From NCBI GenBank assembly GCA_035221665.1, contig CM069136.1, positions 47,926,001 through 47,990,000 of the forward strand: a stretch of 64,000 nucleotides of DNA, read 5' to 3'. Position numbers and translations under genes: made by a program. This document shows positions 1,321-64,000 of this stretch, piece by piece. Within the stretch, counting starts at the first letter, position 1. Each line of letters begins with the position of its first letter. The DNA is from Okamejei kenojei. Lineage: Eukaryota. Under the pieces are notes generated by a model, which was not told where the DNA came from, did no database searches, and saw only the letters and a list, made by a program, of their open reading frames with translations.

Positions 1321-1462
1321 GAACTTTACATTTAACATCCGTAAAATCATGGTCCTCTGCCTATGAGTTTCTGCTGTACACCGTTAACCACCAAATGAAG
1401 ATCTGCAATAGGACCCTCGAAAACCTGGCAGAGTTCTGATAAATTGGCAGTTAACCTTTCTT

Positions 1463-1997
1463 GTTAAAGAAGGAACTGCAGATGCTGGAGAATCGAGGGT
1501 TACACAAAAGGCTGGAGAAACTCAGCGGGTGCAGCAGCATCTAAGGAACGAAGGAGATAGGCGACGTTTCGGGTCGAGACCCTTCTTCAGACTGGTCAGG
1601 GATCAGGGAAACGAGAGATATAGATGGTGATGTGGAAAGATAAAGAACAATGAATGAAAGATATGCAAAAAAGTATCGATGATAAAGGGAACAAGCCATT
1701 GTAAGCTGTTTGTAGTGTGAAAATGAGAAGCTAGTGCGACTAGGGTGGGGGAGAGAGAGAGGGAATGCCAGGGCCCGAGGGCTGAGGGAGAGGTGGGAAG
1801 AGGAGGAGACAGCAAGGGTTAACAGAATTGAGAAAATTCAATGTTCAAGGCCAGAGGATGCAGACTCCCCAAACGGAATATGAGGTGCTGTTCCTCCACC
1901 TTGCGGTGTTGCTCACTCTGGCCGTGGAGGAGGCCCAGGACCGAGAGTCTGCATCCTCTGGGCTTGAACATTGAACATTGAATTTTCTCAATTCTTA
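1463..1997 (-). mobile_element. Penelope-like element 3' fragment with hammerhead motif and internal inversion
   Basis: Minus-strand peptide EEQHLIFRLGSLHPLALNIEFSQF (end of the GIY-YIG domain). Hammerhead core on the minus strand at 1563-1590. Segments 1821-1866 and 1946-1997 are inverted copies of each other. Confidence 0.8.
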
Positions 1998-2026
1998 AAA
2001 CCAATCAGTGCCTTGTTTTAAGGTGA

Positions 2027-2194
2027 AGCAGTACAAATGCTGGAGTAACTCAACAGATTGAATCAGTTTGAAAAAGATTCCCTACCCAAAATGTCACCAT
2101 GTTCTGCAGAGATGCTGCCAAGCTGCTGATCTATTATAGCTCTTTGTGCCATTTTGTGTGTTAACCAGAATCTTTAGTTCTTTGTTTCTATCTG
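2027..2194 (+). mobile_element. Old Penelope-derived hairpin insert
   Basis: GCTGGAGTAACTC...GATGCTGCC...GTTCTTTGTTTCTA, flanked by a 12-bp direct repeat GTTTTAAGGTGA (2015-2026, 2195-2206). Confidence 0.65.
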
Positions 2195-2466
2195 GTTTTA
2201 AGGTGATAATGATGTGTAAAATCTGACTCGCGTTAAGGTTTATGGAATGTAACCCTTACATAAGTCCGGGAGTGTCTGTAATCGGCCTGCAATGGTTGCT
2301 TGAATTACTGCTATTTTACAACAGAACAATTTCAATTAAAAGACCTTTATGATTTAAGGAAATTTTTCACCTAGTGTTCACAAAATAAACCTACTTCAAA
2401 AATAGGGAATAATGATGCTGGATTATTCAAATGGAAATGTTTCTATCGTGATTTGTTATTTCACAG

Positions 2467-2585
2467 CCGTCCAAAACCAAAGCCTGCATTGGAGAAAGTA
2501 CAAAAGCTTGCAAATTCTCTGCCAGAATCATGGGACTGGAGGAATGTAGATGGAGTCAATTATGTTAGTCCAGTTCGTAATCAAG
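2467..2585 (+). CDS. CTSC: Cathepsin C (dipeptidyl peptidase I) internal coding exon, equivalent to human exon 5
   Basis: Acceptor ttcacAG, donor GTAAG. Translates RPKPKPALEKVQKLANSLPESWDWRNVDGVNYVSPVRNQ(G): end of propeptide, start of the papain-fold heavy chain and the oxyanion Gln. 119 bp; phase fits the next exon. Confidence 0.95.
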
Positions 2586-2629
2586 GTAAGTCTGGCTGTG
2601 TTTTGAAACAAATAATTTAAAGTAGGATT

Positions 2630-2800
2630 TTCAAGCCTCCTATAGAATTTTGCTGTGATGTTTAGATTTTCTGCACAGGGTAATATCAACATATGAAAAA
2701 TATGTTGATATTACCCCGTGCATAAAATCTAACCATCATAGCAAAATTCTATAGGAGGCTTGAAGGGCCATATGGCCTACTCCAGTACCTATTGTCTATT
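2630..2800. repeat. 65-bp-arm inverted repeat followed by a CR1 3' tail
   Basis: 2630-2694 and 2700-2764 are near-perfect reverse complements around a GAAAA loop. They are followed by GGGCCATATGGCCTACTCC...CCTATTGTCTATTG. Confidence 0.9.
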
Positions 2801-2859
2801 GAAAAGGGTGAGGGGGAAGTGTTTTTTTGGCACCTTTAGTAAAAATGCTATTGCTGAAA

Positions 2860-3260
2860 TTATTTAGGACTCTGAGACCACACCTTGAGTCCTGTGAATA
2901 GATCTTGTCTTCTAATCTAAGGAAGCATAGCTGTGATGGAGGGAATGCATCAAAAATAGCAGATTGTTTCTTGAAAAAGGGGGATTATGTAATGGTTGTC
3001 TTATTAAGCAGATCTGCCAAAAATCATTCAGAAGAATAAAATATGATCTCAGTGAAACATATTAAATTCTTATTAAGTTTGACAGGTTAGAGGCAGGGAG
3101 TGATGTTTCACTGACTGGGATGTCTAGATCTAGGGGTAACAGTCTTAAAATATGAGTGTGACCATAAGAGTGCCATGAGAACCCGATTCTTCACCCAAAG
3201 GTGATTCGATCTTTTGAATTCTCTACAAAGAGCTGTGGAGGCTCAATCACTGAGCTTGAT
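2860..3260 (+). mobile_element. Highly degraded CR1 fragment
   Basis: Contains GTGAGACCACACCT-like and TCTTCTAATCTAAGGAAG motifs, and TTTGAATTCTCTAC...GCTGTGGAGGC. Confidence 0.6.
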
Positions 3261-4964
3261 TGAAAATTTTTTGAAGGTTAACAAAATCAAGCATGCAAGA
3301 ATGATCAGCCATGCTTGCCATACTTCCATTGTGAAAACATTTTGTCAATAAATCAAAATCTTTGTGCAAATACAGTCCTTGTGCCCAAAAATTAATGTTC
3401 TGAGCTTCCAGTGGACATACCAATCTACATAAAATCTGCCCCAACATCTGTTTCTGATTTGGATATATCTGAAATGCACCCTTTCCTTCTGCAGGTAACA
3501 TTAGAATGTAAAAACATTGGCCAACTATTGCAAAACAGTATTGGTAAAGATCAATGAAAGTATATGTTAGTGAGACTTACTAACATAGGCATTCATAGAA
3601 GATAGATGATGAGGCGAACTTAGCTGAATTATTTTGACTGTGGGACATGTATGAAATAAAAGGTCCTCTCTGTAGGCAAGAGATAATGCTCCATAAATGT
3701 TATCGTTTTGGCATCTAGCTTGCATTCGATCCAAGTTCTTGTCACTGCTTTGTCCCATGTCGTTGGTGACCCCTGCCACAACCAATGTCTGTGGAGAAAT
3801 GGACAAAATGTCATTTTGGTCACACTCCTTCAGGGACAATAAGGTTCAGGCATGCCTTTTCGGCCTTCCATCATCCTGTGCCATCCTGTAGGCTCACATC
3901 TGTTTGTTAACCTTATATTCTCTACTGAGTGGAATTGACATATATTTTCAGCTTATTCCATTGGCAAAGTGATCACTTCCTGAGTGCTGCTCATCTATTT
4001 TGAGGGTATACAGGGCTCTAAATTAGCGGTTGCCCGGGTGCAATGACCACAGAAAGTGAGCCATCCTCATTTTGCCCGGCTTGGCACACAAATACTGGTT
4101 TATACGGTAGATGCAAAAAAACTGATAACTCCGCCTCTCTGGCGAATAAGAATGACATTTCGTGTCGGCGGCGGCTGTATTCCTCTATATCTTTGATTGC
4201 GGGGCTACCCTCTGCTTGCTATCTCTCGCACGCCGTCTGAAGCAGCTTCCACCCTAGGGGAGGTGGGGGGCGGCGGCAACAGGGACGGCCCAGCCGATGT
4301 TGTCCGCTGACCTTCCACCCATCCTTCCCCCCCCTGTGCTCCCCTCCCATCCATCACACTGGTCCCCCAATTCATTGGAATGGTAATCAAATGTGTTTTA
4401 ATTCCCAATGTTATTATTTGTTTTGACACCTTTAAACATATTACCAAAAGAACATTTGCTGCAGTTATGTCCTTTGGCCATCTCTTGTCAGTTAGTGTAA
4501 TGTTTAACCTGTCAGATGGGTGTAGTCGGTTTTAACAGCTATTATCATAAAATTCCTTTAGAAATTTCCTTGCAACCTCTATATTTTGTTATTGATAAAT
4601 TATGTGGGAAGCCAGAGTGTTTCTGTGCCAATAGCAATAACGACCCATGCTATGGCCATGTCATGGTAATTTTCGGTCCTTCACAGGAAGCATGCTTGCA
4701 TCAATCTGTAGTGTGTATGGTTAAGCATATATGTTACCATGGTCCAGGATTTATTGACACAGGTTGATCATATGCTGAATAATCCAACCACATTTTTGTT
4801 TGGAAGTGGAAAGAACTAATAGAAATTGCATTAATTGCAATGTGTAAAAAGAGTTGAGATATTGTATTATAATTTTGCTGCATGTCTTTGTGATATATAT
4901 CAGGTCTTGATTGGTGAATATGTTTAGTTTGTGAGTTATTTGAAACAGAAATAATATGTGAATG

Positions 4965-5181
4965 TAAACAAAAGTGCTGGAGAAACTCAGCGGATGCAGC
5001 AGCATCTATGGAGCGCAGAAAATAGGCAACGTTTCGGGCCAAATCCCTTCTTCAGACTGATGGGTTTCGGCCTGAAACGTTGCCTATTTCCTTTGCTCCA
5101 TAGATGCTGCTGCATCCGCTGAGTTTCTCCAGTACTTTTGTCTACCTTCGATTTTCCAGCATCTGCAGTTCCTTCTTGAAC
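4965..5181 (+). mobile_element. Penelope-derived palindromic insert with hammerhead motif
   Basis: Perfect 14-bp TSD ATAATATGTGAATG (4951-4964, 5182-5195). Inverted arms of about 70 bp and 3' tail CAGCATCTGCAGTTCCTTCTT. Confidence 0.85.
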
Positions 5182-5322
5182 ATAATATGTGAATGCTTCA
5201 TTGATCATAATTCCGACTGGTAACTACGCACTTCGTCCGAGCACATTATCGCACGCGTCATGCAAACCGTCTTCAAAGACCATCTAAACTGTCATTTGGC
5301 AACCTAAAAACCTGTCAAGGTT

Positions 5323-5539
5323 TACACAAAAAGCTGGAGAAACTCAGCGGGTGCAGCAGCATCTAAGGAGCGAAGGAGATAGGCGACGTTTCGGGTCGAG
5401 ACTTCAGTCTGAAGAAGGGTCTCGACCCGAAACGTCGCCTATCTCCTTCGCTCCTTAGATGCTGCTGCACCCGCTGAGTTTCTCCAGCTTTTTGTGTAAC
5501 CCTCGATTCTCCAGCATCTGCAGTTTCTTCGTTAACAAG
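5323..5539 (+). mobile_element. Penelope-derived palindromic insert with hammerhead motif
   Basis: TSD CTGTCAAGGTT (5312-5322, 5540-5550). Perfect inverted arms of about 80 bp. Confidence 0.88.
5409..5436 (+). ncRNA. Minimal type I hammerhead ribozyme core (Penelope type)
   Basis: CUGAAGA-A-GGGU(CUCG)ACCC-GAAA-CGUC: CUGANGA and GAAA boxes, 4-bp stem II, palindromic ACGU stem III and a GUC cleavage triplet. Stem I looks weak, so activity is unproven. Confidence 0.7.
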
Positions 5540-6246
5540 CTGTCAAGGTTGCCCGGCTGGCAACAGGGAAAAAAAGTTAAGCGAGTGCCCTGGTATACAA
5601 CTTATGTGGCACCAATATAAAAATAAATAGCTGTATTATTTAATTGGTTTCTTGGTGTTTAAAACAAAGTGGCAATTGCATTAAAGCTGTGCACCAAACC
5701 CTAGCTGCTAATAGTTATGGACATTTTACAGACCTCCCAACTATCCCGCTTTTGGCATATTCCCGCTTTTTAGTTCCCTTCCCGCCATCCCGATTTACCC
5801 TAATTATCCCGCTAAATTCTTCCTCCCGTGGTGAACGCCGGCGCCATGTGTCCCCGGTTTGCCGGCCCGCGCGATCAGCGGCACTTTGCCGGGCCCTAGT
5901 GGCCCCGTGTGCGCAGCAGAGATGCCAACTGGTACGGATTTCCCGTAATTTCTACGGAAAATTGGCCAATTACGGGCGGTACGATTTTCATATCGTAAAT
6001 CCCGGATTTTGCCGATTTTAAGTTAGCACATACTTGTGTGTGTTTGGGAGTGTGTGAGTGTGTGTGTGAGTGCCAGTGATGGAAATGGGGGGGGTACGCA
6101 GAGGGACGACGTTCTCCTACGTTCCAGTTTCCAGTTTCCATCCTGTGCATGAATTCCCAGCTTTATCCTGCGCTACTTAATCTGACCAATCGGACAGATC
6201 ACGGGCTCAGAGGCTCCCACGCGCTGAAGAGGTTTTCTCCTCGCTG

Positions 6247-6454
6247 GGTACACAAAAAGCTGGAGAAACTCAGCGGGTGCCGCAGCATCTAAGGAGCGAA
6301 GGAGATAGGCGACGTTTCGGGTTTCAGTCTGAAGAAGGGTCTCGACCCGAAACGTCGCCTATCTCCTTCGCTCCTTAGACGCTGCTGCACCCGCTGAGTT
6401 TCTCCAGCTTTTTGTGTACCCTCGATTAGCATCTGCAGTTCCTTCTTTAAAATA
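6247..6454 (+). mobile_element. Penelope-derived palindromic insert with hammerhead motif
   Basis: 14-bp TSD TTTTCTCCTCG(C/T)TG (6233-6246, 6455-6468), with inverted arms. Confidence 0.85.
6329..6356 (+). ncRNA. Minimal hammerhead ribozyme core
   Basis: CTGAAGAAGGGTCTCGACCCGAAACGTC, identical to 5409-5436. Confidence 0.7.
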
Positions 6455-7129
6455 TTTTCTCCTCGTTGCCCGTGCAGCTGCGCCCCTCCCCATCGCACTC
6501 AGCTGCGGGTTTCCAGATGTCAGAGGCCGCTTCTGTCTCTCTCCGCATTTTGCAGCCCACTCACTCGCCCGGCTCCCATCCAACCCCCTCTTCTCACCTC
6601 CTCCCCCTCCCTCTCCTCCCTCCCTTCCTCTCTCCCCCTCTACCCGTCACAGGGGACGACCTTCTCTCCGAGGAGGCACGATCGTCTGTCTCCCCCCGAC
6701 TCTGTCACGCTGGTGGGTGCGCTAAGCGATCGGCTGGCATCACGTCCTCAATATTCTTTAATAACGTATCTTTGCTGCAGGCTGATATTCTTTCCGATTT
6801 AAATCGTTTTCGATTTTTTGTTTTCCTATTTTACGCATTATTTGGTGGCAATCTGTCTCTAAGGGGGTTGCGTTCCAATCACCGACCAGCTACCCAATCA
6901 ATAAATCGGTCTCCTCCTGCCCAATCAGCCGCCGTCTCCAAGGGCATTGTGTCCAATCACATAATGCGCTGGTCACTTGGCAGCCAATCAGACAGTCTCC
7001 TAGGGGCCTTTTGATCAATCACCGACCTGCTTCCCTCACTAAAGCAGACGATGGCTGCAGCCAACACACACACACAGACAGAGACAGAGTCCCCCCCCCC
7101 CCCCTCCTTCCCAACCTCAGCTTCACGGA

Positions 7130-7225
7130 GGGTACACAAAAAGCTGGAGAAACTCAGCGGGTGCAGCAGCATCTAAGGAGCGAAGGAGATAGGCGGACGT
7201 TTTGGGGGCAGTTCCTTCTTTAAAA
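7130..7225 (+). mobile_element. Internally deleted Penelope-derived insert
   Basis: Perfect 14-bp TSD CTCAGCTTCACGGA (7116-7129, 7226-7239). The inverted arm is joined directly to the tail GCAGTTCCTTCTT. Confidence 0.8.
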
Positions 7226-8260
7226 CTCAGCTTCACGGACCCAGAGTACCCTTAGTTCCTAAACCCATTTCCATCACTGGAGTGTGTGTGTGAGTGTGTC
7301 TGTGTGTGTGTGAGTGTGTGTGTGATAAAACATATCAAGACATTATTGATAATGAACTCGTTATCAGTCTTTCAATAGAGCATTTTCAATGAGTTAATAC
7401 ATGTTTATGTAATACCAACTAATGAACATACAGGTATGTTAATGTTAACATTATGCGCTATCGCTTGCCTGTGGGAGCCGCGCTTGCCATCATGCAGAAA
7501 AAATTGCTTTGCGCAAAAAAATTACTGATTTTGTCTCCAAATTACTGATTTTTAGCCTTATGATTACTGATTTGTGCTCTGGAAGGTTGGCATCTCTGGC
7601 GCAGTGGGTGAGGGTTGCCGGGCCCCAGTGGAACGCGCGTGCGCAGTGGGGAGGGGTTGCAGTGGCCGCGCGTGCGCAGTGGGGGAGGGTTGCCGGGCCT
7701 GGCGCCATTTCGAGCCACGCCACGCCCGGCCCAGAGCCCGGGCGGCGCCGGGCCCGCGCGATCAGCGGCACTTTCTTGCCGCCAGCCGGCCGCTCGCGGC
7801 AGCCCCATCACCGGGCCTCCCCCCCACCCCCACCCAGTGCGCAGGCGCAGACCCGCCGGCAACCTGGCCAAGTGCGCATGTGCCGCTCCCCGCCCGCCGG
7901 CAGCCCGCTGATCTGCACCAGTGCGCAGGCGCATAGCCGCCGGCAACAACCCCAAGTGAGAGAAAATGAAGGTGAGTCTAGTGCCAAGTTTATCAAAGTT
8001 TAACAAAGAATTATAAATGTTTCAGCATACATGTACCTTTTTCACATTTTGGCATTTAAAATACTTCTTCACAATTTAGAATTTGTGACATGGGACCCGA
8101 ATAGGGCGCCGCGACATATTATGAATTTTCATTTAAAAATATGAATTTTGAGGGGAAATATTATGAATTTTGACAATCAAATGTTGGGAGGTCTGATTTT
8201 ATCTAGCAACCCAATTGCAGCTTTTCAATTATAATACACGTGGATTGGTTCTTGAGATTT

Positions 8261-11175: not shown

Positions 11176-12240
11176 ATTACCCAAGCTTGTCTCCTCACTA
11201 CATTTACTGCTGGCTCCAGTCACAAATCCGAGTTTTCAAATGATCTGTGCAAGGCATTCATTGATGCTGGTATTCCACTGTGGAAATTGGAAAGCAAATT
11301 TCTCAGAAGTTTGTTTAGAGAAATACACAGAGGAACATATACCAAATGAGTCATCATCACGGAAAAATTATGTTGACAGCAACTTCACATTGTGGTGCAG
11401 AAAATTAAAGATGAAGTTGCATGCAACAAAATATGGATCTCAATAGACGAGACAACTGGAGGGAGATATGTTGCCAACGTGGTCATCGGTACACTGGAGG
11501 CAGGTCAATCATCAAAGGAGCATTTGTTGACATCAGAAGTATTGGAGAAGTCAAACAGCTCAACTATTGCTCAGTTGTTTACATCTTCACTTGCTGTACT
11601 TTGGTCAGAAGGTATAAAACGCAAGATCTTTTGTTTGTGACTTAAAATTTAGACTAGGTGGGATACATGGCTCTTTGCTGTACTCCACCATGCTGCAAAT
11701 TTTGAAAAGATAAAATAAATTGTCAACTGTTTTGAAGAAGAAGAAGAAGAAGAAGAATCTGCTGCAGTCAGGATCGTCAGTGAAACCATGCAGAAAAAGT
11801 CTCTCCACCGTGATCTTGTGTTTATTGCTTCCAATTTTGCAAACTTCCCACAAGCTATCACTTCCCTCGAGAAACATGGCAAAACATTAGTGAATAACTT
11901 GCAACTTTTCAACAAAGTAACTGACGATATTCGTAAAGTTCCTGGTAATGCAGGTAAAGACATGCAAGGAAAATGTGAGAGACTGATTTTAACTAACAAA
12001 GATCTTGCAGAAATACAAAACATAGCTAAAATTCTCAAAGGTAGTTGTAATGCACAAGATATCGACATGAATATAGAGTCTGTAGCTTGTTTCGGGTATG
12101 CACCAGTGACCTCAGCTGAGGTAGAAATACGTTTTTCACAATTGAAGCATATTCTGTCTGATAGACGGAATAGTTTAACACCAGATAATTTGAAATAAAT
12201 GTTAGTAATTATGTGCAACCAGGCAACTTTGGTCATTTAA
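11176..12240 (+). pseudogene. Disrupted hAT transposase coding region
   Basis: The DETT first catalytic Asp motif and the C-terminal PVTSAEVE.RFS dimerisation-region motif are spread over several frames with stops. Confidence 0.8.
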
Positions 12241-12863
12241 TGTAGTATACCTTTATTGTATCATTTTAAACCATATTTTGGTGGTGGAAATAAATGGCTT
12301 TTTATGGCTTTTTATGTCTTTGTCAATAAATGCCTTTTTTGTGCCTTTTTTGGTGATTTTATTATGCCTTTTTGCCTGCCTATTTCAGTGTTTTTTAGTG
12401 CCTAAACATCCTGGCTCTACTTATTAGTTATTAAACTATACCAATAAAGAGTTTTTTTTACAATAAAGATGTTTTTTTTTTAAATTAAATTAAATTTCTG
12501 CTCTTATCATGGCGCACTGCTCAATGGTTGCAGGTTTGTTTAACGCTATATCCTGCTTAGGAGCAGCACTTTGATGTCAGCTGCCCAGCAGGTTGAAGCT
12601 GTTATAGCTGTTGAACATTAGGAATCTGCCTGATTTGTCAGCAGACATTGGAAAAATGAAGTTCTTAGAGCTAAGTGTTAGATGTAGTATTTGGAGTTTT
12701 TCCCAACATTAATATATAGTATGTCACCTTGCCATCGTCTGCATATTCTGGCATTATTTGAATGAATCTACGCAGATGGCTTGCTGTTTGACATTATGCC
12801 ATTTGTGTGGGTGGATTGACCCATGACTGCCCTCTGTTGATTCACAGCTTGTTTCTACTGATG

Positions 12864-13056
12864 ATAGACAAAGAGCTGGCGTAACTCAGCGGGTCAGGCA
12901 ACATCTCTGGAGAAAAAGGATGGGTGAAGTTTCAGTTTGGGACCCGATTCGGAGGTCCCCGTCCCGAAATATCACCCTTTTTTTCCCAGAGATACTGCCT
13001 GACACTTTGTGTCTACCTTTGATATAAACCAGCATCTGTAGTTCTTTGTTTCTACA
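12864..13056 (+). mobile_element. Penelope-derived hairpin insert (older subfamily)
   Basis: GCTGGCGTAACTCAGCGGGTCAGGC...CCCGAAATATCACC...CAGCATCTGTAGTTC. Flanks TTGTTTC(T/C)ACTG at 12849-12860 and 13057-13068. Confidence 0.7.
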
Positions 13057-16989: not shown

Positions 16990-18440
16990 ATAAAACACAA
17001 AGTGTTGGAGGAACCCAGCAGGTCAGGCAGCATCTGTGGACACAATGGACTGGCTGATTGGAGTAGGTGGTTGAAAGGTGGAGGCAGGTCAAAGCCTGCC
17101 AATTGATATGTGAATATAAGAGAGAGGTGAGTTTGATTGCCAGATGGGTGGAATAAGTGATAACAGCAAGAGATGAGGAGATAAAAGGGCGTCAGATGGA
17201 GGGAGGGAGGGAGGGAGGGGGAGGGGGAGTTTAGTGTATGAAGAAGGGGAAAGGAGCCATGTGCCTGAGGGATGGGAGAAATTTGTGCCAACTGATGTGA
17301 AGGGTTGGGCACGAGAAAGAAACGGGGTTGGGATAGGTGAGGTGTTGCTTAAAATTGGAGAAATCAATGATCATTAGGTTGTCAGTGACCCAAACAGAAT
17401 ATGAGGTATTGTTCCTCCAGTTTACATGTGGCCTCACTCTGGTAATGGTAATACTAAAGATCTGAATGGGTATGGGGAAGCAACCAGTACAATCAACAGA
17501 CTTGACGGACAGAGTGCAAGTGTTTGGCGGAACGATTGTCTTATGCTTGGTCTCCTCGATATAAAGGATTCTTAGAATAAAGGGAGGTCATTTAAGACTG
17601 AGGTGAGAAACCTTTTCACCCAGAGATTTGTGAATTTATGGAATTCCCTGCCACAGAGTGCAGTGGAGGCCAAGTCATTGGATGGATTTAAGAGAGAGTT
17701 AGATAGAGCTCTAGGGGCTAATGGAGTCAAGGGATATGGGGAGAAGGCAGGCACGGGTTATTGATAGGGGGCGATCAGCCATGATTACAATGCATGGCAG
17801 TGCTGGATCGAAGGACCGAATGGCCTCCTCCTGCACCCATTTTCTATGTTTCTAAAGGATATCACACAAGGAGCACCAAATACAATAGATGTGGTGGGAT
17901 CATGATGAAGGTGGCAGAAATGTTGGAGAATGATGTGTTAGATGGCAGGCTGAGGGGGTGAAAGGTGAGGGCTAAAGGAACTCTATGCTTGCTATATTTG
18001 GGCGCAAGAAGAGTGAGTGGAGAACTGCGGGACACCGGCGACTTGATTAGGGGTTCATCCATCACAGCAGTGAGAAAACCATGTTTGCTGAAGAAGGTAA
18101 ACATCTCGGATGTCCTAGAGTAGAAAGCCTCATCTTGGGAGCAGATGTAGGAAAGAAAAAGAAAATTAAAGCAAAGGATGGTCTTCTTGCGAGAGGAAGA
18201 GTGGGAAGAAGTTTTGGTCATAGTAACTGGGAATCAGTGTGTCTGGAGTAAAAATGAGGACATAGTCTTTCCTCAGTGGTGGAGATAAAGATTGTGAAAG
18301 GGGAGGAGAGGTTTCAGAGATAACCAATTGAAATTGAGACCAGGGTGAAAGATAGTAGTAAAGGTGAAAACAACAAATTCAGCACGTGGGGCAGGAGGCA
18401 GACCCAATGCAGTCATTAATATAGTGGATAAAGAGTTGGG
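16990..18440 (-). mobile_element. Degraded Penelope-like element interrupted by a CR1 3' end (about 17570-17852, + strand)
   Basis: Minus peptides SQDEAFYSRTSEMFTFFSKHGF and KHRVPLALTFHP match those of the Penelope at 61892-63840. The CR1 tail is CCATTTTCTATGTTTCTA. Confidence 0.75.
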
Positions 18441-18774
18441 GAATGATCAAGTCAAGTCAAGAGTTTATTGTCATGTGTCCCAGATAGGACAATGAAATTC
18501 TTGCTTGCTGCAGCACAACAGAATATTGTAAGCTGAAATACAGAACAGGTCAGTTCAATATACACATAAATAAGCAGATAAACTGCTTACAATATTGATG
18601 CTCCAGTACATTTGGAACGTTCAACGTAACCAGCAGAAAGACAATCATAGCTGGTGTCATGCGATTACCATGGCTACATCTTTGACAAATAAACACCTTT
18701 GTGAGAGGAGTCCCTGTACACCTCCACACCCCACCAGAAAAGCCACCATGCCCTCTGGTTCTTCCTTGAGCAGA

Positions 18775-19585
18775 GAATCAATCAGTTCCCTAGTTGCTAA
18801 CCATTTTAACACTCCTTCTCATTTCCATACTTTCTGCCTTAAGCCTCCTCCATTGCCTAAGTGAGGTTACATGCAAACTGGAGGCATAGCAGCTCATCTT
18901 CTGCTTGGGTAGTTTACCGCCCAAAGATATGAACATTTATTTCTCCAGTTTCAAGTAATACCCCGTCTGCTCCCCATCTCTCATGCCCCTCCCAGTCACT
19001 CAGCTCCTTTCCTTCCTTTCTACACTCATCTCTCATCCCTGAGTTCCCCATTTCCCCTTTATTCACCTGTCCCCTTCCACCAAAATCTCTCCCTCCATCT
19101 TTACATTTTACTTGTCCTCTGGTCTACTTACCGGACTCCTTTTAATCTGCTTTTCTTCTTTCTTGCGTATGACGTGCACACCTAAAGTTGTGGGACAACT
19201 TGTTCTACTTTTGATCTTATTTGATTGCGCACGCTAGGTTGATTGCATTAGTTGAAACAGGGCAGACCATGTGAAGATTGCAATCTCCCACCCCATATGC
19301 TTTTCATCTTTGGCCTTTGTAACTTACTCCAGCCATCTTCCATTCAAATGCATCCCTCACCTGTATCCACCTTGCAATTGCCAGACTTTGTCCTGTCTCC
19401 CCCCACTTCTCATTACTGGCTCCCCCCCTTCCAATCAGTTTGAAGAAGTACACAACTGTCCATTCTCGCCACAGATGCTGCCTGACCTGAGTTCCTCCAG
19501 CACGTTGTGTTTTTTCTCAATGTAATGAGTGGACTCGTACACAATCTACACTCAAGATCCCAACATCTGTAGTTTCTTGTGTCTC
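18775..19585 (+). mobile_element. Penelope-like 3' fragment
   Basis: VANHFN..SH motif and CTCATCTTCTGCTTGGGTAG. Ends GATGCTGCCTGACCTG...CATCTGTAGTTTCTT. Confidence 0.7.
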
Positions 19586-19751
19586 TATGTTTGGCTGAGT
19601 TTACTTCTGAAATGGTATTGATCTGGCAGGTTACTAATGAAATTTGTGCATTTTGCATCATCACTTGAATGCAGGAGGGGGCAGTGGGTTTTTATTTCAC
19701 CCATATTTACAATGTATGACCTGTTAACGTGTGTTTTTAAATGTCATACAG

Positions 19752-20254
19752 GATGTTTGGGAGGATTTCCATATTTGATTGCCGGGAAGTATGCCCAAGA
19801 TTTTGGTGTGGTTGAAGAAGATTGCTTTCCTTACACAGGAAGAGATGATCCTTGCATCATGAAGAGCTCTTGCTACCGCTACTACACTCCTCAGTATTAT
19901 TATGTTGGTGGGTTTTATGGTGCTTGCAACGAAGCAGCAATGAAAGTGGAGCTGGTTAAAAATGGCCCTGTATCCGTTGCTTTTGAAGTTTACAATGACT
20001 TTATGAATTATCACGGAGGAATCTATCACTATACAGGGTTGGGTGATCGGTTCAACCCCTTTGAGCTTACTAATCATGCAGTGTTGCTTGTGGGCTATGG
20101 CAGGGACCCACAAACAAAGGAAAAATATTGGATTGTTAAGAACAGCTGGGGTAGTAATTGGGGAGAATATGGTTACTTCCGCATCCGTCGTGGCACCGAT
20201 GAATGTGCAATTGAAAGCATAGCTGTCGCAGCTATCCCAATACCAAAACTTTAG
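19752..20254 (+). CDS. CTSC: Cathepsin C last coding exon
   Basis: Acceptor tacAG. Encodes [19 protein letters not shown]...[16 protein letters not shown]...KNSWG...[21 protein letters not shown], including the catalytic His and Asn. Stop TAG at 20252-20254. Confidence 0.97.
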
Positions 20255-21294: not shown

Positions 21295-21575
21295 AAAAGG
21301 GACGCGCAGTGCTGGAGAAACTCAGCGGGTAAGGCAGCATCTCTGGAGAGCATGGATAGGTGACACTTTGGGTCGGAACCTTTCTTCACCTGGGGTTAGG
21401 AGAGATAGATGATTGAATGGCAGAGTGGTCTTGATGGGCCACATGGCCTAATTCTGCTCCTATCATTTATGATCTTCACCTATCCATGTTTTCCAGCGAT
21501 GCTACCTGACCAGCTGAGTTACTCCAGCACTTTGTCCTGTTTCGTAAACCAGCATCTGCAATTCCTTGTTTTACA
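21295..21575 (+). mobile_element. Penelope-derived hairpin with a short CR1 3' tail inserted at its apex
   Basis: Inverted arms GCTGGAGAAACTCAGCGGG / GCTGAGTTACTCCAGC surround GATTGAATGGCAGAGTGG...GGCCTAATTCTGCTCC. Confidence 0.7.
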
Positions 21576-22704
21576 TTATCCCATTTGTTATGTTTAATTC
21601 ATTGTGCAATTAATAAGAGCTGCAGATATGTCTGTTAGTGTCTGTGGTTGCAGTTTGTGGAAGGACTGTTGTGCTTTCTGCGAAAGCTTGTCAAATGTGT
21701 TTGTGCACTAGGTAATGGGAGCTGCAAAAAAAAAACTTTGTTAGACTGATCCATGTGAGCTTCCTTCATGTACTATCTATTGGTTTTAATTAATCATCAA
21801 CTTTGCATTTAACACAATTGACAACTTTAATTCAATTTCACAACCATTTGTTTTCTCTTCATTGAACATTTTAACTTTTTTAGATGTCATTTATTCACTT
21901 GTAAATTCAACCATATTTCAGGATGGGCTGTCAAAATACTGTGAAGAGCCAGCAGATGTCAGTGCACTTATTTGCTACAGGTTAAAGACTGGAGTAAAAT
22001 TTCAATTTAAGCCATTCGCAATTCCTTCAACTTTTTAGAAGCTTTCTCATTCCATTACTGGTAAGATTGTTGTGACACCATAGCAGCGTAGTACAGAAAT
22101 GTTGTACTGAGGTCGGCTGAAGGGCATGAAGGAAATGTGATGAATTAGACTGCATATGTTAGTAAGCACATGAAAATTATTACATTCAACCAACAGATCG
22201 TGGATTCCAATATTTTCCTGGATTTTAATTCCCTGTTCATCTTCCGCTGATCGATTCTGTTTCTTGCCATCTCACCCAATGTTCTGCTCCTGCTTCTTTT
22301 CAAACAATGCTATAGTGTTACAATCCCTGTCCCCTCTGATCCTTCATGAAGAAGCCTCGGATTTATTTACTTTGTTTCCCAACCTAATGGATTCTGAGCC
22401 AAGAATGATGTTAAACCAGGCACTCTCCACTCTGTGTGAACAAAAACCTGGCCTGCACATCTCCTTTAAACTTTTTCCACCTCTCACTGTAAAGCTACGC
22501 CCTCTAGTATTTGACTTTTTTCCTTTTAGCTGGGTGCCTTCACTGAAGACTGCCTGCTTCTTCCAGAATTCCAACCACCTTCCCTTGCCCACCACTGCCC
22601 AATTTCTGGCTTCCCTCTAGATCTTTTCATTGCCATTTGATGATGCATGGTTTAGACATGGTGGGTTGAAGGACATGTTCTTGTACTGAAGAACATGTTC
22701 TTGG

Positions 22705-28121: not shown

Positions 28122-28305
28122 CTACGTGGAGGGAATGGACAGGCGAAGTTTTGGATCGTTCCCTTCTTCGGACTCATCAGTCCGAGGAGGGGTCCCGACC
28201 CGAAACATCGCTTGTCCATTCCCTCCACATATGCTGCCTGACCCACTGAGTTAATCCAGCATTTCGTGTTTTGTTCAGGATTCAAGCATCTCCAGTTCCT
28301 CGTGC
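28122..28305 (+). mobile_element. Degenerate Penelope hairpin about 440 bp upstream of the RAB38 ATG
   Basis: AGTCCGAGGAGGGGTCCCGACCCGAAACATCGC (mutated hammerhead) with partial inverted arms. Confidence 0.7.
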
Positions 28306-28379: not shown

Positions 28380-28740
28380 ACTGAATAAGTCTCACGCATT
28401 GGGCCGTAGGTGAAAGAAAGTAAACTTTTGTTGGGTGAAAGAAAGTAAACTTGAAAGGTCAACGTGATTGAGGGAAAACTACTGAACTACAATCAAAGTA
28501 TCCCCAGCCACCAGAGAGTTGACCTACCACCACATTCTCAGCATAGCAGCACGTCGGGATGATGAGGCCAGGACGGTCCGTGGCGTGAGAATGACTTGTG
28601 GGGTTGTGCTTATATTCACGCTAGCAGAGCAAATCCCGCTGTAAGCCTGGGCGAGGGTCCCTGTGATTTACAGTCGCGGCTGCTGGTTTCACTTGAAGAG
28701 CTGTGCACGGCGGGTTTTGTATGACCCTGCAGTTTCGAAA
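28380..28740 (+). promoter_or_regulatory. Probable RAB38 proximal promoter / 5' UTR
   Basis: Non-repetitive, CpG-enriched stretch directly upstream of the ATG. It contains a 19-bp direct repeat GGTGAAAGAAAGTAAACTT (28409-28427, 28434-28452). The TSS cannot be determined from sequence. Confidence 0.45.
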
Positions 28741-36812: not shown

Positions 36813-37975
36813 GGCTGCACTGAATGTTTTGAGTCAAGACTCTTCTTCAGTCTGTACACTCCCTCCACACATGCTGTCTGAACCAGAGAACCCCTCCAGC
36901 ACTTTGTATTTTAGGAATTTAACCCAAATTTCCCCTGTAAAACTGTTCCTCAACCCATTTAAGCAGCTGCATCTCTGTTACCTGCCTCTTGCCAATCAAA
37001 ATAGTTTGCACTCTTGACCAAATTAAAATGTTAAAAACAATGGAATCTCCAACAGTGTAGAACCAGCTCAGAGCTGCAATGCTAATCCTTTTTAGTCGCC
37101 ATGCTAACTAAGCTACATTTGTGCTTTCTAATTCCCTCCTGTCCTTTCCAGAAGCTTGCTGTTAACATTTGCATGGATTTATTTTCTGAATCAACTTGTT
37201 ATTATATATGTCCATATCAGCAAAACTGCCAAACTCCCTCTACTTTTTTCTCATTACTTCTCATGCCAAGAATATTATGAACCCTAAGCCCTATCTCTGA
37301 TCATGCCATATTATCATAATCCTATGTGGCAGGCAGTGTGAGCATGCATCTTACTTACCTTATTAATCACATTATAGACATCCACATATTTGCTATTTAA
37401 TATACCCTTTGTCACTATCAGTACAAGCTACAAGTGAAGTGGTCCCTATCACTGTAGTCTACTGTAGTCAGAAGCATAATGTTGCTCCTTCATCTCTTGT
37501 TTTGTAGTGATCGTGGAGTTGGATGCTATCTCAGCACATAACATACTTTGTAAGTTCCATTTTGAAAGCAGACAACCTGGGAAAACATCACATTGATGCA
37601 GGAGATCCAATGTACTGGACCTCTCCACTTTGTCCTTGTTATCTTTTTTATCTTTGCTCTTTTTGATCCAACATCATGATTCTGATCCTTCTTGGGCTTT
37701 TGAAACCAATGAATGTGGAACGTCCACATTTTGTGCAAGTCTAGATTATCCCACTTGCAATAATAGTATTGTCCCAAGGAACATTTAATTGATTTGAGCT
37801 GTGCATTTATCAATTTGTCTTTTGGTGTTTTATACACAATTTGTGAAACACATGAATCAAAGTTTACGGAGATGTCATAAGCATGCTTATGGCATTGAAA
37901 ATAGGACAATATTGCTGGATGTGAGTTCTGACATAAATCCGAGCTGATTTGTTTAAACTGGATGTGAGTTCTCGT

Positions 37976-38170
37976 CAAAAAAAGAGACATAGTGATGGAG
38001 TAACTCGGTCTGGCAGCATGTCTGGAGAACATGGGTCGGTGTTGTTTCACCTTGGAGCCCATGACCCTTCTGAATCTATATTCCCCAGAGAGGCTGCCTG
38101 ACCTACTGAGTTACTCCAGTACTTGGTCTTATTTTGTAAACCAACATCTGAAGTTCCTTGTTTCTACATT
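37976..38170 (+). mobile_element. Penelope-derived hairpin insert
   Basis: GGAGTAACTCGG / GAGTTACTCC arms and a CATCTGAAGTTCCTTG tail. GAGTTCTC on both flanks (37966-37973, 38173-38180). Confidence 0.65.
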
Positions 38171-38195
38171 CAGAGTTCTCATTTCTTATTTTATA

Positions 38196-45911: not shown

Positions 45912-46128
45912 GTTGGAAGGAAGTGCAGATGCTGGTTTACACCAAAGAAAGACAAAACAATGCTGGAGTAAATCTGCAGGTTAGGCAGCATCTCTGGAGA
46001 AAAGGAATAGGTGACATTTTGTGAGTCTCCGTCTGAGTCTGAAGAGGGTTCTTGACCCAAAACGTCACCTATTCCTTTTCTCCAGAGATGCTGTCCGACC
46101 CGCTGAGTTACTCCAGCATTTTGTGCTT
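45912..46128 (-). mobile_element. Penelope-derived palindromic insert
   Basis: 16-bp TSD ATCAGCAGATGAATGT (45896-45911, 46129-46144). Inverted arms, with a degenerate hammerhead CTGAAGAGGGTTCTTGACCCAAAACGTC. Confidence 0.85.
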
Positions 46129-56884: not shown

Positions 56885-57225
56885 GCAATTCCCTCCCTTC
56901 TACCTCTCTCTTCTCCATGCCCCAACTGCATGTGCACCCATTTCACACTTTCCCCTTCCCCCTTGTACCCATCCATCTATATTCCTTCTCTTGGCTTCAC
57001 ATTTTGTGCCTCTCCTTATTTACCATCTCACTACTTTTTGTCTTTTCATCTCTGGTCTTTGTCCAACCATCGGCCATTCAAACCCCCCTCACCTACATCC
57101 ACCGCTCACTTGCCAGGCTTTGCCCCATCCAATTTCTCTTCGAGCTTTCTCCCCTCTACTACAATCATTATGAAGAAGGGTCCCAACTCGAAACATTGCC
57201 TATCCACCTTCTCCAGAGATGCTTC
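56885..57225 (+). mobile_element. Penelope 3' fragment
   Basis: Pyrimidine-rich UTR followed by TGAAGAAGGGTCCCAACTCGAAACATTGCC. Confidence 0.65.
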
Positions 57226-57574: not shown

Positions 57575-59435
57575 AACAGGAAGGCAGATTATTATCTGAA
57601 TGGTGTCAGATTAGGAAAAGGGGAAGTGCATCAAGACCTGGGTGTGCTTGTACATCAATCACTGAAAGTAAGCATGCAGGTACAGAGGGCAGTGAAAAAA
57701 TCTAATGGCATGTTGCCTTTCATTGCGAGAGGATTTGAGTTTAGGAGCAAGGAGGTCCTACTGCAGTTCTACAGGACCCTGGTGAGACCGCACCTGGAGT
57801 ACAGTGTGTAATTTTGGTCTCCTAATTTGAGGAAGAACATTGTTGCAATTGAGGGAGTACAGCGTAGATTCACCAGGTAACTTCCCGGGATGGCGGGACA
57901 GTACCCGGACGTGGCGCCGATGGATGGGAAGTGAAGCAAAGAAGTGGAAGCCAAATAACCAAATGGAAACAAAGCCGAAATGGCAAACAACCAAATGGAA
58001 ACTAAGCCGAAACGCCAACTAACCGAAAGGACGGTAAGCCTAAAAGCCAACTAACCGAAAGGCTGCGTCGCCTAAAAGCAAACTCATTGAATGGCTGCTC
58101 TGCCGAAATGCCACCTATCCGAAAGCACAACCCTCAGGACAGCTCCCTCTCTCCCACGGCCACGACTGCCCATCCGCCTCATCTCCCCCCGCACTGTGAT
58201 GGGCTGTGGGTTGGGTGGAGCAGAGGTGTGGGACAGGTTGGGCATTCCGCCCATGTAGAGTCACTTACCGCCATCGGACCCCCGCCCCCCGGCACCGTCA
58301 TGTCCGTTATTTTACTTTTCTGTTGAGCGGCATTCAGTTCGTTGGCTTGTAGGTGACGCCGCCTTTCGGGTAGGTGGTGTTTTGGTAGAGTGGCCATTCA
58401 GTTAGTTTGCATTTAAGCAGCCCACCCTTTTGGTTAGTTGGCGTTTCGGCTTCATTTCCATTTGGTTAGTTGGCGTTTCGGCTTAGTTTCCTTTTGGTTA
58501 TTTGGCGTTTCGGCTTTGTTTCCTTTTGGTTATTTGGCTTCCACCTTTTTGCTTCGGCTTCCCATCCATCGGCGCCACGTCCGCACACGGGCTGGGACTG
58601 AAATATGATGAAAGAACGGGTTGACTGGGCTTGTATTTACAGGAATTTAGAAGGATGAGAGGGGATCATAGCATCTTTGCAAGGGCCAGAAAGCGAGCGG
58701 GCAAGATCATCTCTGACCCCTCTCACCCTGGCCACAAACTCTTTGAATCACTTCCCTCCGGATTGTCAAAGCTGCCACAGCCAGATATAAAAACAGTTTT
58801 TATCCACGAGTAGTTGCTCTACTCAACAGCCAAAAATCTGTAGCGTCCCCTTGATCTGGGATTTTGTTGGTTCACATGCTAGATCAATGGTGTTTTATCA
58901 TTAATGTTTTACTATATTGATGTTTAGTGTTTTCTGAGTCATTCATAACTGTCACTGTATGTCATGTTGTCACTTGTGTGCAGAGCACCAAGGCAAATTC
59001 CTTGTATGTGAATACTTGGGCAATAAACGTACTTACTTATTTATATAAAATTCTTAAAGGATTGGAAAGGCTAGATGTAGGAAAAATGTTCCCGATGTTG
59101 GGTGAGTCCAGAACTAGGGGTTACAGTTTAAGAATAACGGGCAGGCCATTTAGGACTGAGATGAGGAAATTCACCTAGAGTGTTGTGAATCTGTGGAATT
59201 CTCTGCCACAGAAAGCAGTGGAGGCTAATTCACTGGATGTTTTCAAGAGAGAGTTAGATTTAGCTCTTAGGACTAAAGGAACCAAGGGATATAGGGAAAA
59301 GGCAGGAACAGGGTACTGATTTTTAATGATCAGCCATGATCATATTGAATGGTGGTGCTGGCTCCAAGGGCAAAATAGCTTATTCCTGCACCTATTTTTC
59401 TATTTTTCTATGTTTCTATGTTTTTATGTTTCTAT
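57575..59435 (+). mobile_element. CR1 3' fragment interrupted by a foldback MITE and a Rex1/Babar-like 3' end (about 58668-59040)
   Basis: DLGVLVHQSLKV...LVRPHLEY peptide. The CR1 resumes after each insert and ends in a (TTTCTATG)n tail. Confidence 0.8.
57900..58590. mobile_element. Foldback/MITE-type element with long TIRs and subterminal tandem repeats
   Basis: CGGACGTGGCGCCGATGGATGGGAAG at left and its reverse complement at 58560-58583. The arms are built of CCGAAA/CCAACTAACC repeats. A related terminus starts at 63841. Confidence 0.8.
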
Positions 59436-61812: not shown

Positions 61813-62335
61813 TAAACTCCATCTGCCATTTCTACAGCTCGCCACCCATTTCTGCAGCAATGTGACTAAACAATGGGAATGATGTGTAGGAATGTGTAAG
61901 AAGGAACTGCAGATGCTGGTTTAAACCAAAGATAGACACAAAAAGCTGGAGTAACTCAGCGGGACAGGCAGCATCTCTGGAGAGAAGGAATGGGTGGTGT
62001 TTCAGGTCGAGACCCTTCTTCAGACTAGTTAGGGATAAGGGAAATGAAAGAAATAGATGGTGATGTGGAGCGATAAAGAACAATGAATGAAAGATCTGCA
62101 AAAAAGTAACGATGATAAAGGAAACAGGCCATTGCTAGCTGTTTGTAGGGTGAAAATGAGAAGCTATTGCAACTTGGGTGGGGGAGGGATAGAGAGAGAG
62201 GGAATGCTGGGGCTACCTGAAGTGAGAGAAATCAATATTCATGCCACTGGGCTGCAAGTTGCCCAAGCGAAATATGAGATGCTGTTCCTCCAATTTGCAT
62301 TTAGCCTCACTCTGACAATGGAGGAGACCTAGGAC

Positions 62336-62566
62336 TTCTCATTTTCACACCACAAACAGCTTACAATGGCTTGTTCCCTTTATCATCGATACTTTTTTGC
62401 ATATCTTTCATTCATGGTTCTTTATCTCTCCACATCACCGTCTATATATCTCGTTTCCCTGATCCCTGACCAGTCTGAAGAAGGGTCTCGACCCGAAACG
62501 TCGCCTATCTCCTTCGCTCCTTAGATGCTGCTGTACCCGCTGAGTTTCTCCAGCTTTTTGTGTAAT
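62336..62566 (+). mobile_element. Younger Penelope terminal fragment nested in opposite orientation
   Basis: Reverse complement of about 1500-1728. Flanked by CCTAGGAC (62328-62335, 62567-62574). Intact hammerhead core at 62475-62502. Confidence 0.82.
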
Positions 62567-62907
62567 CCTAGGACAGAAAGGTCTGTGTAGGAATTTGAAG
62601 GAGAATTAAAGTGTCCAGCTACCGAGAGATCAGGTAGGTTCAGGCGGGCTGAGCGATGGTGTTCCGTGAAACGATTGCCCAGTCTGCATTTGGTCTCGCC
62701 GATGTATAAGTCCACATATTGACCAATGGTTACAGTAGATGAGGTTGGAGGAGGTGCAAGTCAATCACTGCCTAACCCGAAAGGACTGTCGGGGTCCCTG
62801 GACAGAGTTGAGGGAGGAGTTATAGCGACAGGTGTTGCATTTTCTGCGGTTGCAGGGGAAGATACCTGGGAGAGGGTGGTTTGGGTGGGAAGGGATGAGT
62901 TAACCAG

Positions 62908-63261
62908 CAGGGGCGGAAAACACAGGGGGGCCAGAGGGGACACGTCCCCCCCCCCCATGTTTTGAGAGGTGGGGGACATCCCCCCCCCCCAAGACCTGTG
63001 CCTCATCCGCAGCCAGGATCGATCCCGGTCGGGTCTCCGGCGCTGTCCGTCCCCACCCGAGTGCCCCCCCCCCACGGGTGGCCAGAGAGGTCGGGAGTCA
63101 GGCGCGAGCTGTATCCCCAGGCCCACAGCCAGCGCAGTATCTTTATTTAGCGCTGGACTGAGCCTCCGAGGCCTCGCGCATGTGTGTGCGCATGCGCGCG
63201 CGGGCGCCAAAATATTGCGTCCCCCGTCCCCTCCGTGCTTTCATAGCGAGTTCCGCTCTTG
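62908..63261. mobile_element. hAT-type MITE related to 40010-40494
   Basis: Starts CAGGGGCGGAAA, has the same G/C-run subtermini and ends ATAGCGAGTTCCGCTCTTG. No clear TSD. Confidence 0.6.
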
Positions 63262-63840
63262 GAGTTGCAGAGGAAATGGTCTCTCTGGAAGGCGAAATGG
63301 GGTGCAGATGGGAAAATGTGGCTAGTGGTAGGATCCCGTTGGCGGTGACGGAAATTTCAGAGGATTATGTGTTGTATGCGACAGCTGATGGAGTGGAAGT
63401 TAGGGACTAGGGGAACTCTGTCTCCGTTGCTACTAGGGGAAGGCGGAGCAAGGGTGGTGTTGCGGGGTACAGAGGAGACACAAGTGAAGGCCTCATCTAC
63501 GATGGGAGAGGGGAACCCCCATTCCCAAAAGAATGAGGACATCTGGGATGTCCGAGTATGGAACACCTCATCTTGCGGCGTAGACGGAAGAATTTGAAGT
63601 AGGGGATAGAGTTTTTGCAGGAAGCATGGTGGGAAGATGTGTAGTCGAGATAGTTGTGGGAGTCAGTGGGTTTGTAATAGATGTCAGTCAATATTCTATT
63701 TCCTGTGATTGAGACTGTGAGATCAAGAAAGGGGAGGGAGGTGTCGGAGATAGTCCGTAAATTTGAGTGCAGGATGAAAATTGGTGGTGAGGTTAATGAA
63801 GTCCGCAGGTTTTGCATGCGTGCAGGAGGTAGCGCCGATG

Positions 63841-64000
63841 CCGTGTGCGGACGCGGTGCCGACAGACAAGAGGCTGAAGCAAAGAAGCCAAAGAACCGAA
63901 TAGAAACGAGGCCGAAATAGTATGAAGACGAAACGCCTACTAATCGAAAGGATGGGACGCCTAACTTGCTGCTTGGGTTCAGATTGCCCAGTCACCTATG
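63841..64000. mobile_element. Start of another foldback element related to 57900-58590
   Basis: CCGTGTGCGGACG is the reverse complement of 58578-58590. It is followed by GAAGCAAAGAAG and CCGAAA repeats. Confidence 0.65.

Follow-up and report, generated by a model that had tools for sequence, protein, structure and literature searches.

The 64,000-nucleotide stretch of Okamejei kenojei DNA analyzed here (contig CM069136.1, positions 47,926,001 to 47,990,000; the window) carries short two-arm inserts that are, with near certainty, insertions of a Penelope-like retroelement. [quoted passage not shown] In the proposed mechanism, both strands of a single staggered target cut would prime reverse transcription, anew at each landing, at two internal RNA sites that bound the tail of the element and lie ∼93 and 131 nt from the RNA 5' end. 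The capped RNA would start at A(-31) to A(-35), within an initiator-like word (element positions are counted from the predicted hammerhead cut site). The short cDNAs would run off the template's 5' end, and their ends would be trimmed and joined via short self-complementary words in or beside the hammerhead. The templates would be mostly uncut RNA, because the arms read through the cut site.

Twin priming is likely by analogy: a Penelope-like protein has been described to cut both target strands and extend them, with reverse transcription beginning from two internal sites in the RNA that enclose the tail (PMC11167929). The most specific part of the proposal is more tentative and falls a little short of even confidence. 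It holds that the capped transcript starts at the first bases of its own hammerhead, at A(-31) to A(-35), that the ∼200-bp palindromes are paired run-off cDNAs, and that a 93-nt tandem joint is the seed of the pseudo-long terminal repeat (pseudo-LTR).

Inserts and parent element

The arm sequence was detected by BLAST at ∼20 sites in the window, including long copies joined to coding sequence (Table 1). The short inserts mostly measure 168 to 217 bp. Relative to the cut site, the start of one arm lies at about +62 to +70 and that of its partner, in the tail, at about +100 to +103; the tail sequence is confined to one arm in all 10 short two-arm inserts. Exact target-site duplications (TSDs) of 11 to 16 bp flank 6 of these 10, whereas repeats of at least 11 bp were seen in 1 of 394 random position pairs in the same search box; across the insertions of the element, TSDs range from 8 to 16 bp. 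The arms of a single insert can be nearly or fully identical (80/80 in 5323, 74/76 in 6247, and 72/80 in 4965).

An earlier interpretation made from the letters of the window alone (the sequence-only reading) had listed four TSD-flanked, self-complementary inserts between 4965 and 7225, six further copies, and near-identical arms in the 5323 and 6247 copies. The arm identities and the four exact TSDs (14, 11, 11, and 14 bp) were recovered, with the 6247 insert starting 3 nt farther left, at 6244. The 7130 insert, however, is not a hairpin: it consists of one arm and 18 nt of tail, without the CUGAAGA core. All six further copies were found, including the one at 45912 with its 16-bp TSD, but no clean TSD was found at 12864, 21295, or 28122, and ∼10 more copies, long ones included, had been missed.

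Table 1. Insertions of the Penelope-like element and associated features in the window (C3 and cut positions refer to the hammerhead motif)
Feature	Position	Strand	TSD	Details
Two-arm insert	4965-5181		4951-4964 / 5182-5195 (14 bp)	
4965 insert, tail-less arm	4965-5061	-		Reaches -34/-35; intact hammerhead, C3 at 5055; predicted cut after 5028
4965 insert, tail-bearing arm	5062-5181	+		From -20; without CUGA core
Youngest two-arm insert	5323-5539		5312-5322 / 5540-5550 (11 bp)	
5323 insert, tail-less arm	5323-5402	-		To -18; followed by TT
5323 insert, tail-bearing arm	5405-5539	+		From -32
5323 insert, one-sided tail	5503-5539	+		∼37-40 nt that extend past the start of the other arm
Minimal type I hammerhead motif	5407-5438	+		Stem I (2 bp), CUGAAGA, one additional A, stem II (4 bp, tetraloop), GAAA, CG palindrome, UC; cut predicted after 5436
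Two-arm insert	6244-6454		6233-6243 / 6455-6465 (11 bp)	
6244 insert, tail-less arm	6247-6322			To -12
6244 insert, tail-bearing arm	6325-6454			From -32; 9-nt tail deletion
6244 insert, hammerhead	6329			C3; predicted cut after 6356
Insert	7130-7225		7116-7129 / 7226-7239 (14 bp)	Last 18 nt of tail follow the arm; no catalytic core
7130 insert, tail-less arm	7130-7207	-		To about -11
Older two-arm insert, opposite orientation	45912-46128		16 bp	Tail-less arm ends at A(-31), then a base reading G on the sense strand
Old two-arm insert	2027-2194		12 bp	
Old two-arm insert	12863-13056		Best repeat 10 bp, overlapping the tail of the element	Both arms stop near -20
Old two-arm insert	21295-21577		Best repeat 8 bp, overlapping the tail of the element	∼80 nt of unrelated repeat at apex
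Old two-arm insert	28122-28305		Best repeat 5 bp	Arms to -31 and -35; left end eroded
Very old two-arm insert	37974-38172		8-bp candidate	Apex hard to read
Young long tail-bearing copy	1460-1775	-		97% identical to 5323; 213 nt upstream of cut site; intact hammerhead, C3 at 1590
1460 copy, candidate RNA start	1593			A(-31); TATAT 29 nt upstream
Young single tail-less arm	62336-62566	+	8 bp	From -168; inside endonuclease region of an older copy; hammerhead C3 at 62475; candidate RNA start 62472
Old long two-arm insertion (2.6 kb)	16991-19586			Tail-less arm on minus strand, reaching RT at 18444; tail-bearing arm on plus strand from 18708
Decayed parent element	61893-64000	-		RT C-terminal region 63839-63270; CX4CX2C linker plus GIY-YIG endonuclease 62890-62563 and 62329-62216; followed by stop, 3' UTR, remnant of the hammerhead, and tail; continues beyond the window

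The arms represent the direct 3' end (pseudo-LTR) of a decayed open reading frame (ORF) at 61893 that encodes a reverse transcriptase (RT) and a GIY-YIG endonuclease. The RT piece has nine database relatives at 66 to 75% identity, some with RVT_1 or GIY-YIG domains in Pfam (GIY-YIG weakly); shark and ray RT/GIY-YIG proteins match it at 72 to 75%. One relative (P0005) could be aligned across 63839-63270, 62890-62563, and 62329-62216, covering the RT thumb, the linker, and the endonuclease, directly upstream of the arm sequence. The endonuclease piece retrieved 98 proteins in a full phmmer search; a word search gave no match for it, and PDB none that was meaningful. Taken alone, the RT and endonuclease pieces of the window hit no Pfam family below an E value of 0.01. 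DNA pattern scans of viral, metagenome, and prokaryote collections gave no match, and a metagenome protein scan yielded three weak loci (38 to 42% over 36 to 60 residues) that were not used as evidence. From 62860, the linker between the RT and the endonuclease carries a CX4CX2C motif; a CX2-5CxxC linker motif is described as the mark of Neptune and Nematis (PMC8557442). Since this motif is present and only Neptune and Poseidon were found in a survey of 31 vertebrates, the element probably belongs to Neptune.

Thus, the first of two alternatives offered by the sequence-only reading, recurrent 5'-truncated and inverted Penelope insertions, is supported: the arms are the 3' end of the window's ORF for RT and GIY-YIG, and the head-to-head layout, the one-sided tail, and the TSD are those of the published form.

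Longer copies show the same sequence in other arrangements. At 1775, the 1460 copy changes into an endonuclease end that belongs to another subfamily; behind it lies a short inverted piece (1945-2002) with no terminal repeat (together 1776-2002). In the insertion at 16991-19586, both arms carry RT and endonuclease remnants and are mutual nearest neighbors (83%); a possible decayed 10-bp TSD (8 of 10 positions) is doubtful, and each arm has lost most of the hammerhead in a deletion of its own (near 17050 and 19450). At the apex of the 21295 insert (21395-21475), ∼80 nt belong to another repeat, presumably similar to the 3' end of a CR1-type long interspersed element and due to a template switch or a later insertion. 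At the 45912 apex (46010-46040), a 6- to 7-nt arm-end word is repeated twice, as if priming had slipped at the template end.

Arm ends and the candidate RNA start

The 5'-most element base was read by hand for 29 arms, from 11 two-arm insertions and 7 single arms within the window; not counted were the remnant at 36815 and the copy at 57049, which is broken at its 3' end, and 2027, 12864, and 37976 are old and uncertain. Nineteen of the 29 arms stop between -36 and +2, a further 8 stop at -168 or farther out, and 2 stop downstream, while the interval from -36 to -167 holds no stop at all. Eight of the 19 clustered arms stop at -31 to -35, and 11 of the 29 stop within the motif span of -30 to +2. 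Under the most favorable exponential length null, such clustering has p ∼9e-9 (2e-6 without the three old copies). The median stop is -20 in tail-less and tail-bearing arms alike (9 of each), despite arm lengths of 82 and 120 nt; as the starts lie 38 nt apart, the stop follows the sequence and not the length.

Two other routes were considered and rejected. A fold-back of a single cDNA cannot be the general route, since in 4 of 10 short copies (4965, 21295, 37976, and 45912) the tail-less arm holds upstream bases that are missing from the tail arm, unless these were lost in later deletions. Cut RNA was rejected as the usual template because most arms read through the cut site; possible exceptions that start near it are arms of 21295 and 37976 and the remnant at 36815-36905.

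Further indications of an RNA start come from public contigs aligned to 1440-1790 (123,497 from set X1, 89,784 from X11, and 7,644 from X13). Same-strand joints in these contigs leave the reference at 1593, which is A(-31). Among the 12 joints with intervening letters that were listed (399 more being unlisted), 5 start at 1593, all in X11 and all with C as the first letter, and land at four different places (1555, 1556, 1557, and 1560); 4 more of the 12, likewise with C first, begin at 1588 or 1592. The six loose ends listed for X11 include those at 1592 and 1593, which carry long mixed flanks with C first. The joint from 1593 to 1501, found in 19 contigs of X1 and 4 of X11, delimits a unit of 93 nt that runs between A(-31) and the tail-less start. 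Position -32 is a pyrimidine (C or T) in all 9 long copies of the window, so that a G there would be untemplated in them. An extra G derived from the cap is reported as a mark of full-length L1 insertions (PMC11702581).

A(-31) falls within an initiator-like word, since YCA occupies -33 to -31 in 8 of the 9 long copies; in both young long copies, the TATA-like word TATAT lies 29 nt upstream of A(-31), as it does for 2.3% of all A's. Transcription of Drosophila virilis Penelope begins in the pseudo-LTR, from an internal promoter (PMC2377424), and a TATA box plus initiator is noted in the pseudo-LTR of Adineta (PMC3846280).

Several observations weigh against this interpretation of the arm ends. 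The interval from -36 to +2 was chosen after the data had been seen, and the strict motif span of -30 to +2 gives p of only ∼1e-3; later deletions at the palindrome centers could have moved the junctions. The extra base is clear in only one arm of the window (45912) and ambiguous in another (28122). The 5323 and 6247 inserts keep a templated C(-32) and three older arms reach -34/-35, so that more than one start site would be needed. The C-bearing joints are rare same-strand tandems, mostly from X11, rather than hairpins as such; the 15 joints listed of 113 include none with a change of strand, and an unseen subfamily with G at -32 could mimic the added base. A drop in depth upstream of 1594 provides no evidence because the subfamilies have unrelated 3' untranslated regions (UTRs). 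The two young long copies represent one subfamily, so the TATA-like word counts once, and the other seven long copies do not have it. Finally, the conserved YAG at -32 to -30 could be a splice acceptor.

Two other kinds of direct tandem were seen in the public contigs. Rare tandems of 37 to 39 nt contain the hammerhead core alone (1556-1594) and are possible seeds of minimal retrozyme arrays. A 103-nt tandem in the 3' UTR, from 1705 to 1603, is present in 15 contigs of X1.

Hammerhead motif and alternative explanations

A search of the window with a descriptor for the minimal type I hammerhead gave five intact motifs (5409+, 6329+, 62475+, 5055-, and 1590-), compared to a mean of 0.02 in 100 Markov-shuffled windows. 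By its sequence, the motif fits the core CUGANGA / GAAA / NUH, stem II, the palindromic positions 15.2-16.2, and stem I. The predicted cut after GUC at 5436 and the 2-bp stem I, both given in the sequence-only reading, were returned identically by the descriptor. Its statement that most hairpins bear the core at the apex was too broad: the motif is intact in only 3 of 10 short two-arm inserts (5323, 6247, and 4965, in the last on the minus strand, in the tail-less arm). The Rfam search that it had suggested found no hammerhead, either at the gathering threshold in the whole window or at E values up to 10 in 4900-7300, where 17 matches were returned, mostly to generic microRNA hairpins that scored below gathering; this probably reflects the absence of stem III from the motif.

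In a test of covariation across 16 copies, 85% of the cells in stems I and II are paired, compared to 8 to 49% in slid controls, a level not above that of column shuffles (161 of 500). In the 5323 and 6247 hairpins, formation of the hammerhead comes at a predicted cost of 39 and 31 kcal/mol, compared to 5 to 8 in a single arm; cleavage of the host pre-mRNA by these copies is therefore not expected. As the long stem is predicted to bury the ribozyme, the hairpins are probably dead ends. Cofolding of two cores did not produce the dimeric hammerhead, although this is a weak test for a 4-bp contact. A stem between tail and body (about +20 to +28 with +80 to +88) is predicted in 10 tail-bearing arms, with hardly any compensatory change; its z-scores in single sequences lie between -0.3 and -1.9. 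In 1460, 4965, and 5323, an ATG in the arm (about +22; 5458-5536) opens a frame that continues through the tail; it may be the start of the ORF of the element, as in other Penelope-like elements.

The second alternative of the sequence-only reading, that the hairpins form a ribozyme-bearing family in their own right, is not supported by the sequence comparisons. The apex junctions differ in all 10 short copies, no alignment column from +1 to +62 separates the 7 tail-less from the 7 tail-bearing arms beyond a majority of 3 to 5 of 7, and the long single-arm copies at 1460 and 62336 are 95 to 98% identical to the arms of 5323, 6247, and 7130. The discriminator proposed in that reading, a continuous spread of junctions as the sign of simple truncation, has a mixed outcome: the junctions are neither identical nor continuous, being clustered at the hammerhead with a hard upstream edge. 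A non-autonomous hairpin element, similar to a short interspersed element or a retrozyme and transcribed and copied as a unit by the Penelope protein, would account for the near-constant size (168 to 217 bp for most inserts) and the high abundance (123,497 matching public contigs in X1 and 89,784 in X11), and non-autonomous Penelope derivatives are known (bioRxiv 10.64898/2026.07.22.740005; PMC8557442). It is nevertheless very improbable, given the ten distinct junctions, the absence of any left/right diagnostic column, and the existence of several subfamilies, each with matching long copies; moreover, the inserts are not tandem like retrozymes, and the stem is predicted to bury both the ribozyme and the priming region. 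The window copies are all single or inverted, without direct tandem units that each carry a hammerhead, and ARAGORN detected no head derived from a tRNA in the window. In a weaker form of this idea, single arms that bear a promoter, such as 1460, could serve as non-autonomous sources of RNA.

The remaining alternatives concern the signal or the event that sets the arm ends. The strongest of them, still rather unlikely, keeps the same origin but has reverse transcription begin at the RNA 3' end and stall at a folded or dimerized hammerhead, with the palindromes (stem II, ACGU, and CAG-T-CTG) annealing the cDNAs. It would explain the 11 of 29 arms that stop inside the motif (-30 to +2), the placement of the 4965, 5323, and 6247 junctions on GGG or CAG words, and the tandem joints that land at +3 to +8, just across stem I. 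However, 8 arms pass the whole motif to end at -31 to -35 and 8 long arms pass it fully; stem II has only 4 bp, even a single arm does not have the hammerhead as its predicted minimum fold, the dimer form did not appear in cofolding, and the added C is left unexplained. That last objection also applies to splicing, an improbable explanation in which YAG at -32 to -30 is an acceptor site and the arm ends reflect a processed RNA end or a spliced template. There is a precedent in D. virilis Penelope, whose intron ends at helix I (PMC4209133). In the window, 8 of the 9 long copies have AG at -31/-30, preceded by pyrimidine-rich DNA, a donor-like GT is found at the ORF stop in 4 of 7 inspected ORF ends, and TTCAG at the 5323 and 6247 apices corresponds to the ORF end of the 61893 copy. 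Yet TTCAG is just as well CTGAA in mirror image, pyrimidines abound throughout the 3' UTR, and three arms retain sequence upstream of the AG. Slightly less probable still are solo remnants, in which recombination between the two direct repeats removed the ORF from a full insertion (inverted pseudo-LTR, pseudo-LTR, ORF, and pseudo-LTR plus tail), or deletion shortened a long palindrome. Long palindromes are unstable, and a long two-arm copy is present at 16991-19586. The three-repeat layout with a TSD has been published (PMC3846280). Against this stand the 80/80 identical arms of 5323, which leave little time, the 10 to 1 ratio of short to long two-arm forms, the direct truncated insertion with a TSD at 62336, and the hard edge at -35, which is not expected of random deletion.

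Genomic setting and known systems

The four focal inserts lie in an intron of a cathepsin C-like gene, with exons at ∼2500, 15170, and 19622-20254; Rab-like exons were found at 28645 and 56232. All are on the plus strand, and the gene pair is taken here to be CTSC and RAB38. A DNA-transposon-like element at 5917-7598, presumably hAT-like, has 13-bp terminal inverted repeats and a 6-bp TSD (5911-5916 / 7599-7604), contains several CCAAT words (6880-7030), and encloses the inserts at 6244 and 7130. Another remnant (11719-12198) weakly matches the hAT dimerization domain (E value of 8e-4), and an array of short repeats at 57933-58555 forms long imperfect inverted arms, with a related piece at 63850-63965. 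Four of the five window copies of the youngest subfamily are found within 6 kb (1460-7225), three of them within 2 kb, which suggests a local target preference or open chromatin.

The object itself is ordinary, a very abundant Penelope-like family in a cartilaginous fish, and its value is that of a test bed. A hard edge at the 5' border of the ribozyme predicts a capped RNA start there. If this is true, the mass of copies would preserve, like fossils, the RNA 5' end, the twin priming, and the copying of uncut RNA, and a single geometry would explain the inverted and tandem ends as well as the 2-bp stem I. How such ends form, and what the hammerhead does in vivo, are treated as open questions in PMC8557442 and PMC11167929. 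The young hairpins bring perfect double-stranded stems of 80 bp into the cathepsin C-like intron and probably act as substrates for the editing or silencing of RNA, not as signals for self-cutting.

Published work already covers the element class, the ribozyme motif, and the form of insertion. The edge of the arm ends at the hammerhead and the joints that leave A(-31) with an added C may be new: no statement that the inverted junction marks the RNA start was found in the literature covered, which did not extend to older Penelope papers and repeat databases, where the family may be named.

Insertion units of endonuclease-bearing Penelope-like elements (PMC3846280; PMC8557442; PMC8969392) share with the inserts the 5' truncation, the inverted truncated head-to-head copy, the 30- to 40-bp tail at one end, the TSD around the whole unit, and the small palindromes at the junction. 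The units in the window differ in consisting mostly of two terminal repeats without an ORF, in their size of ∼200 bp, in having ends clustered at the hammerhead, and in their density (∼20 copies in 64 kb). A further close parallel is Poseidon of Anolis carolinensis, for which two internal RT start sites bounding the tail, cutting and extension of both strands, and an uncut RNA template have been described in vitro (PMC11167929); the same features would be shared by the window element. Poseidon, however, is a different clade, the window element having the CX2-5CxxC linker, and the available part of that source was not found to map RNA starts or to account for inverted-arm ends.

The motif itself agrees with the minimal hammerhead ribozymes of metazoan Penelope-like elements in being of type I, with a palindromic dinucleotide (15.2-16.2) in place of stem III, an extra base after position 9, and G10.1-C11.1 (PMC4209133). 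Stem I has 2 bp here and in D. virilis, compared to 4 to 5 bp in most minimal hammerheads; stem II has 4 bp here, and within the hairpins the motif is predicted to be buried. In Schistosoma, pairs of minimal hammerheads lie on opposite strands, 100 to 700 bp apart, according to the same source. Non-LTR retrozymes (bioRxiv 10.64898/2026.07.22.740005; PMC6765202) are likewise short, non-coding, derived from Penelope terminal repeats, and equipped with a type I hammerhead. As far as available, the preprint covers tandem forms only: a retrozyme is built of direct tandem units that each hold a hammerhead, whereas the window inserts are single inverted pairs.

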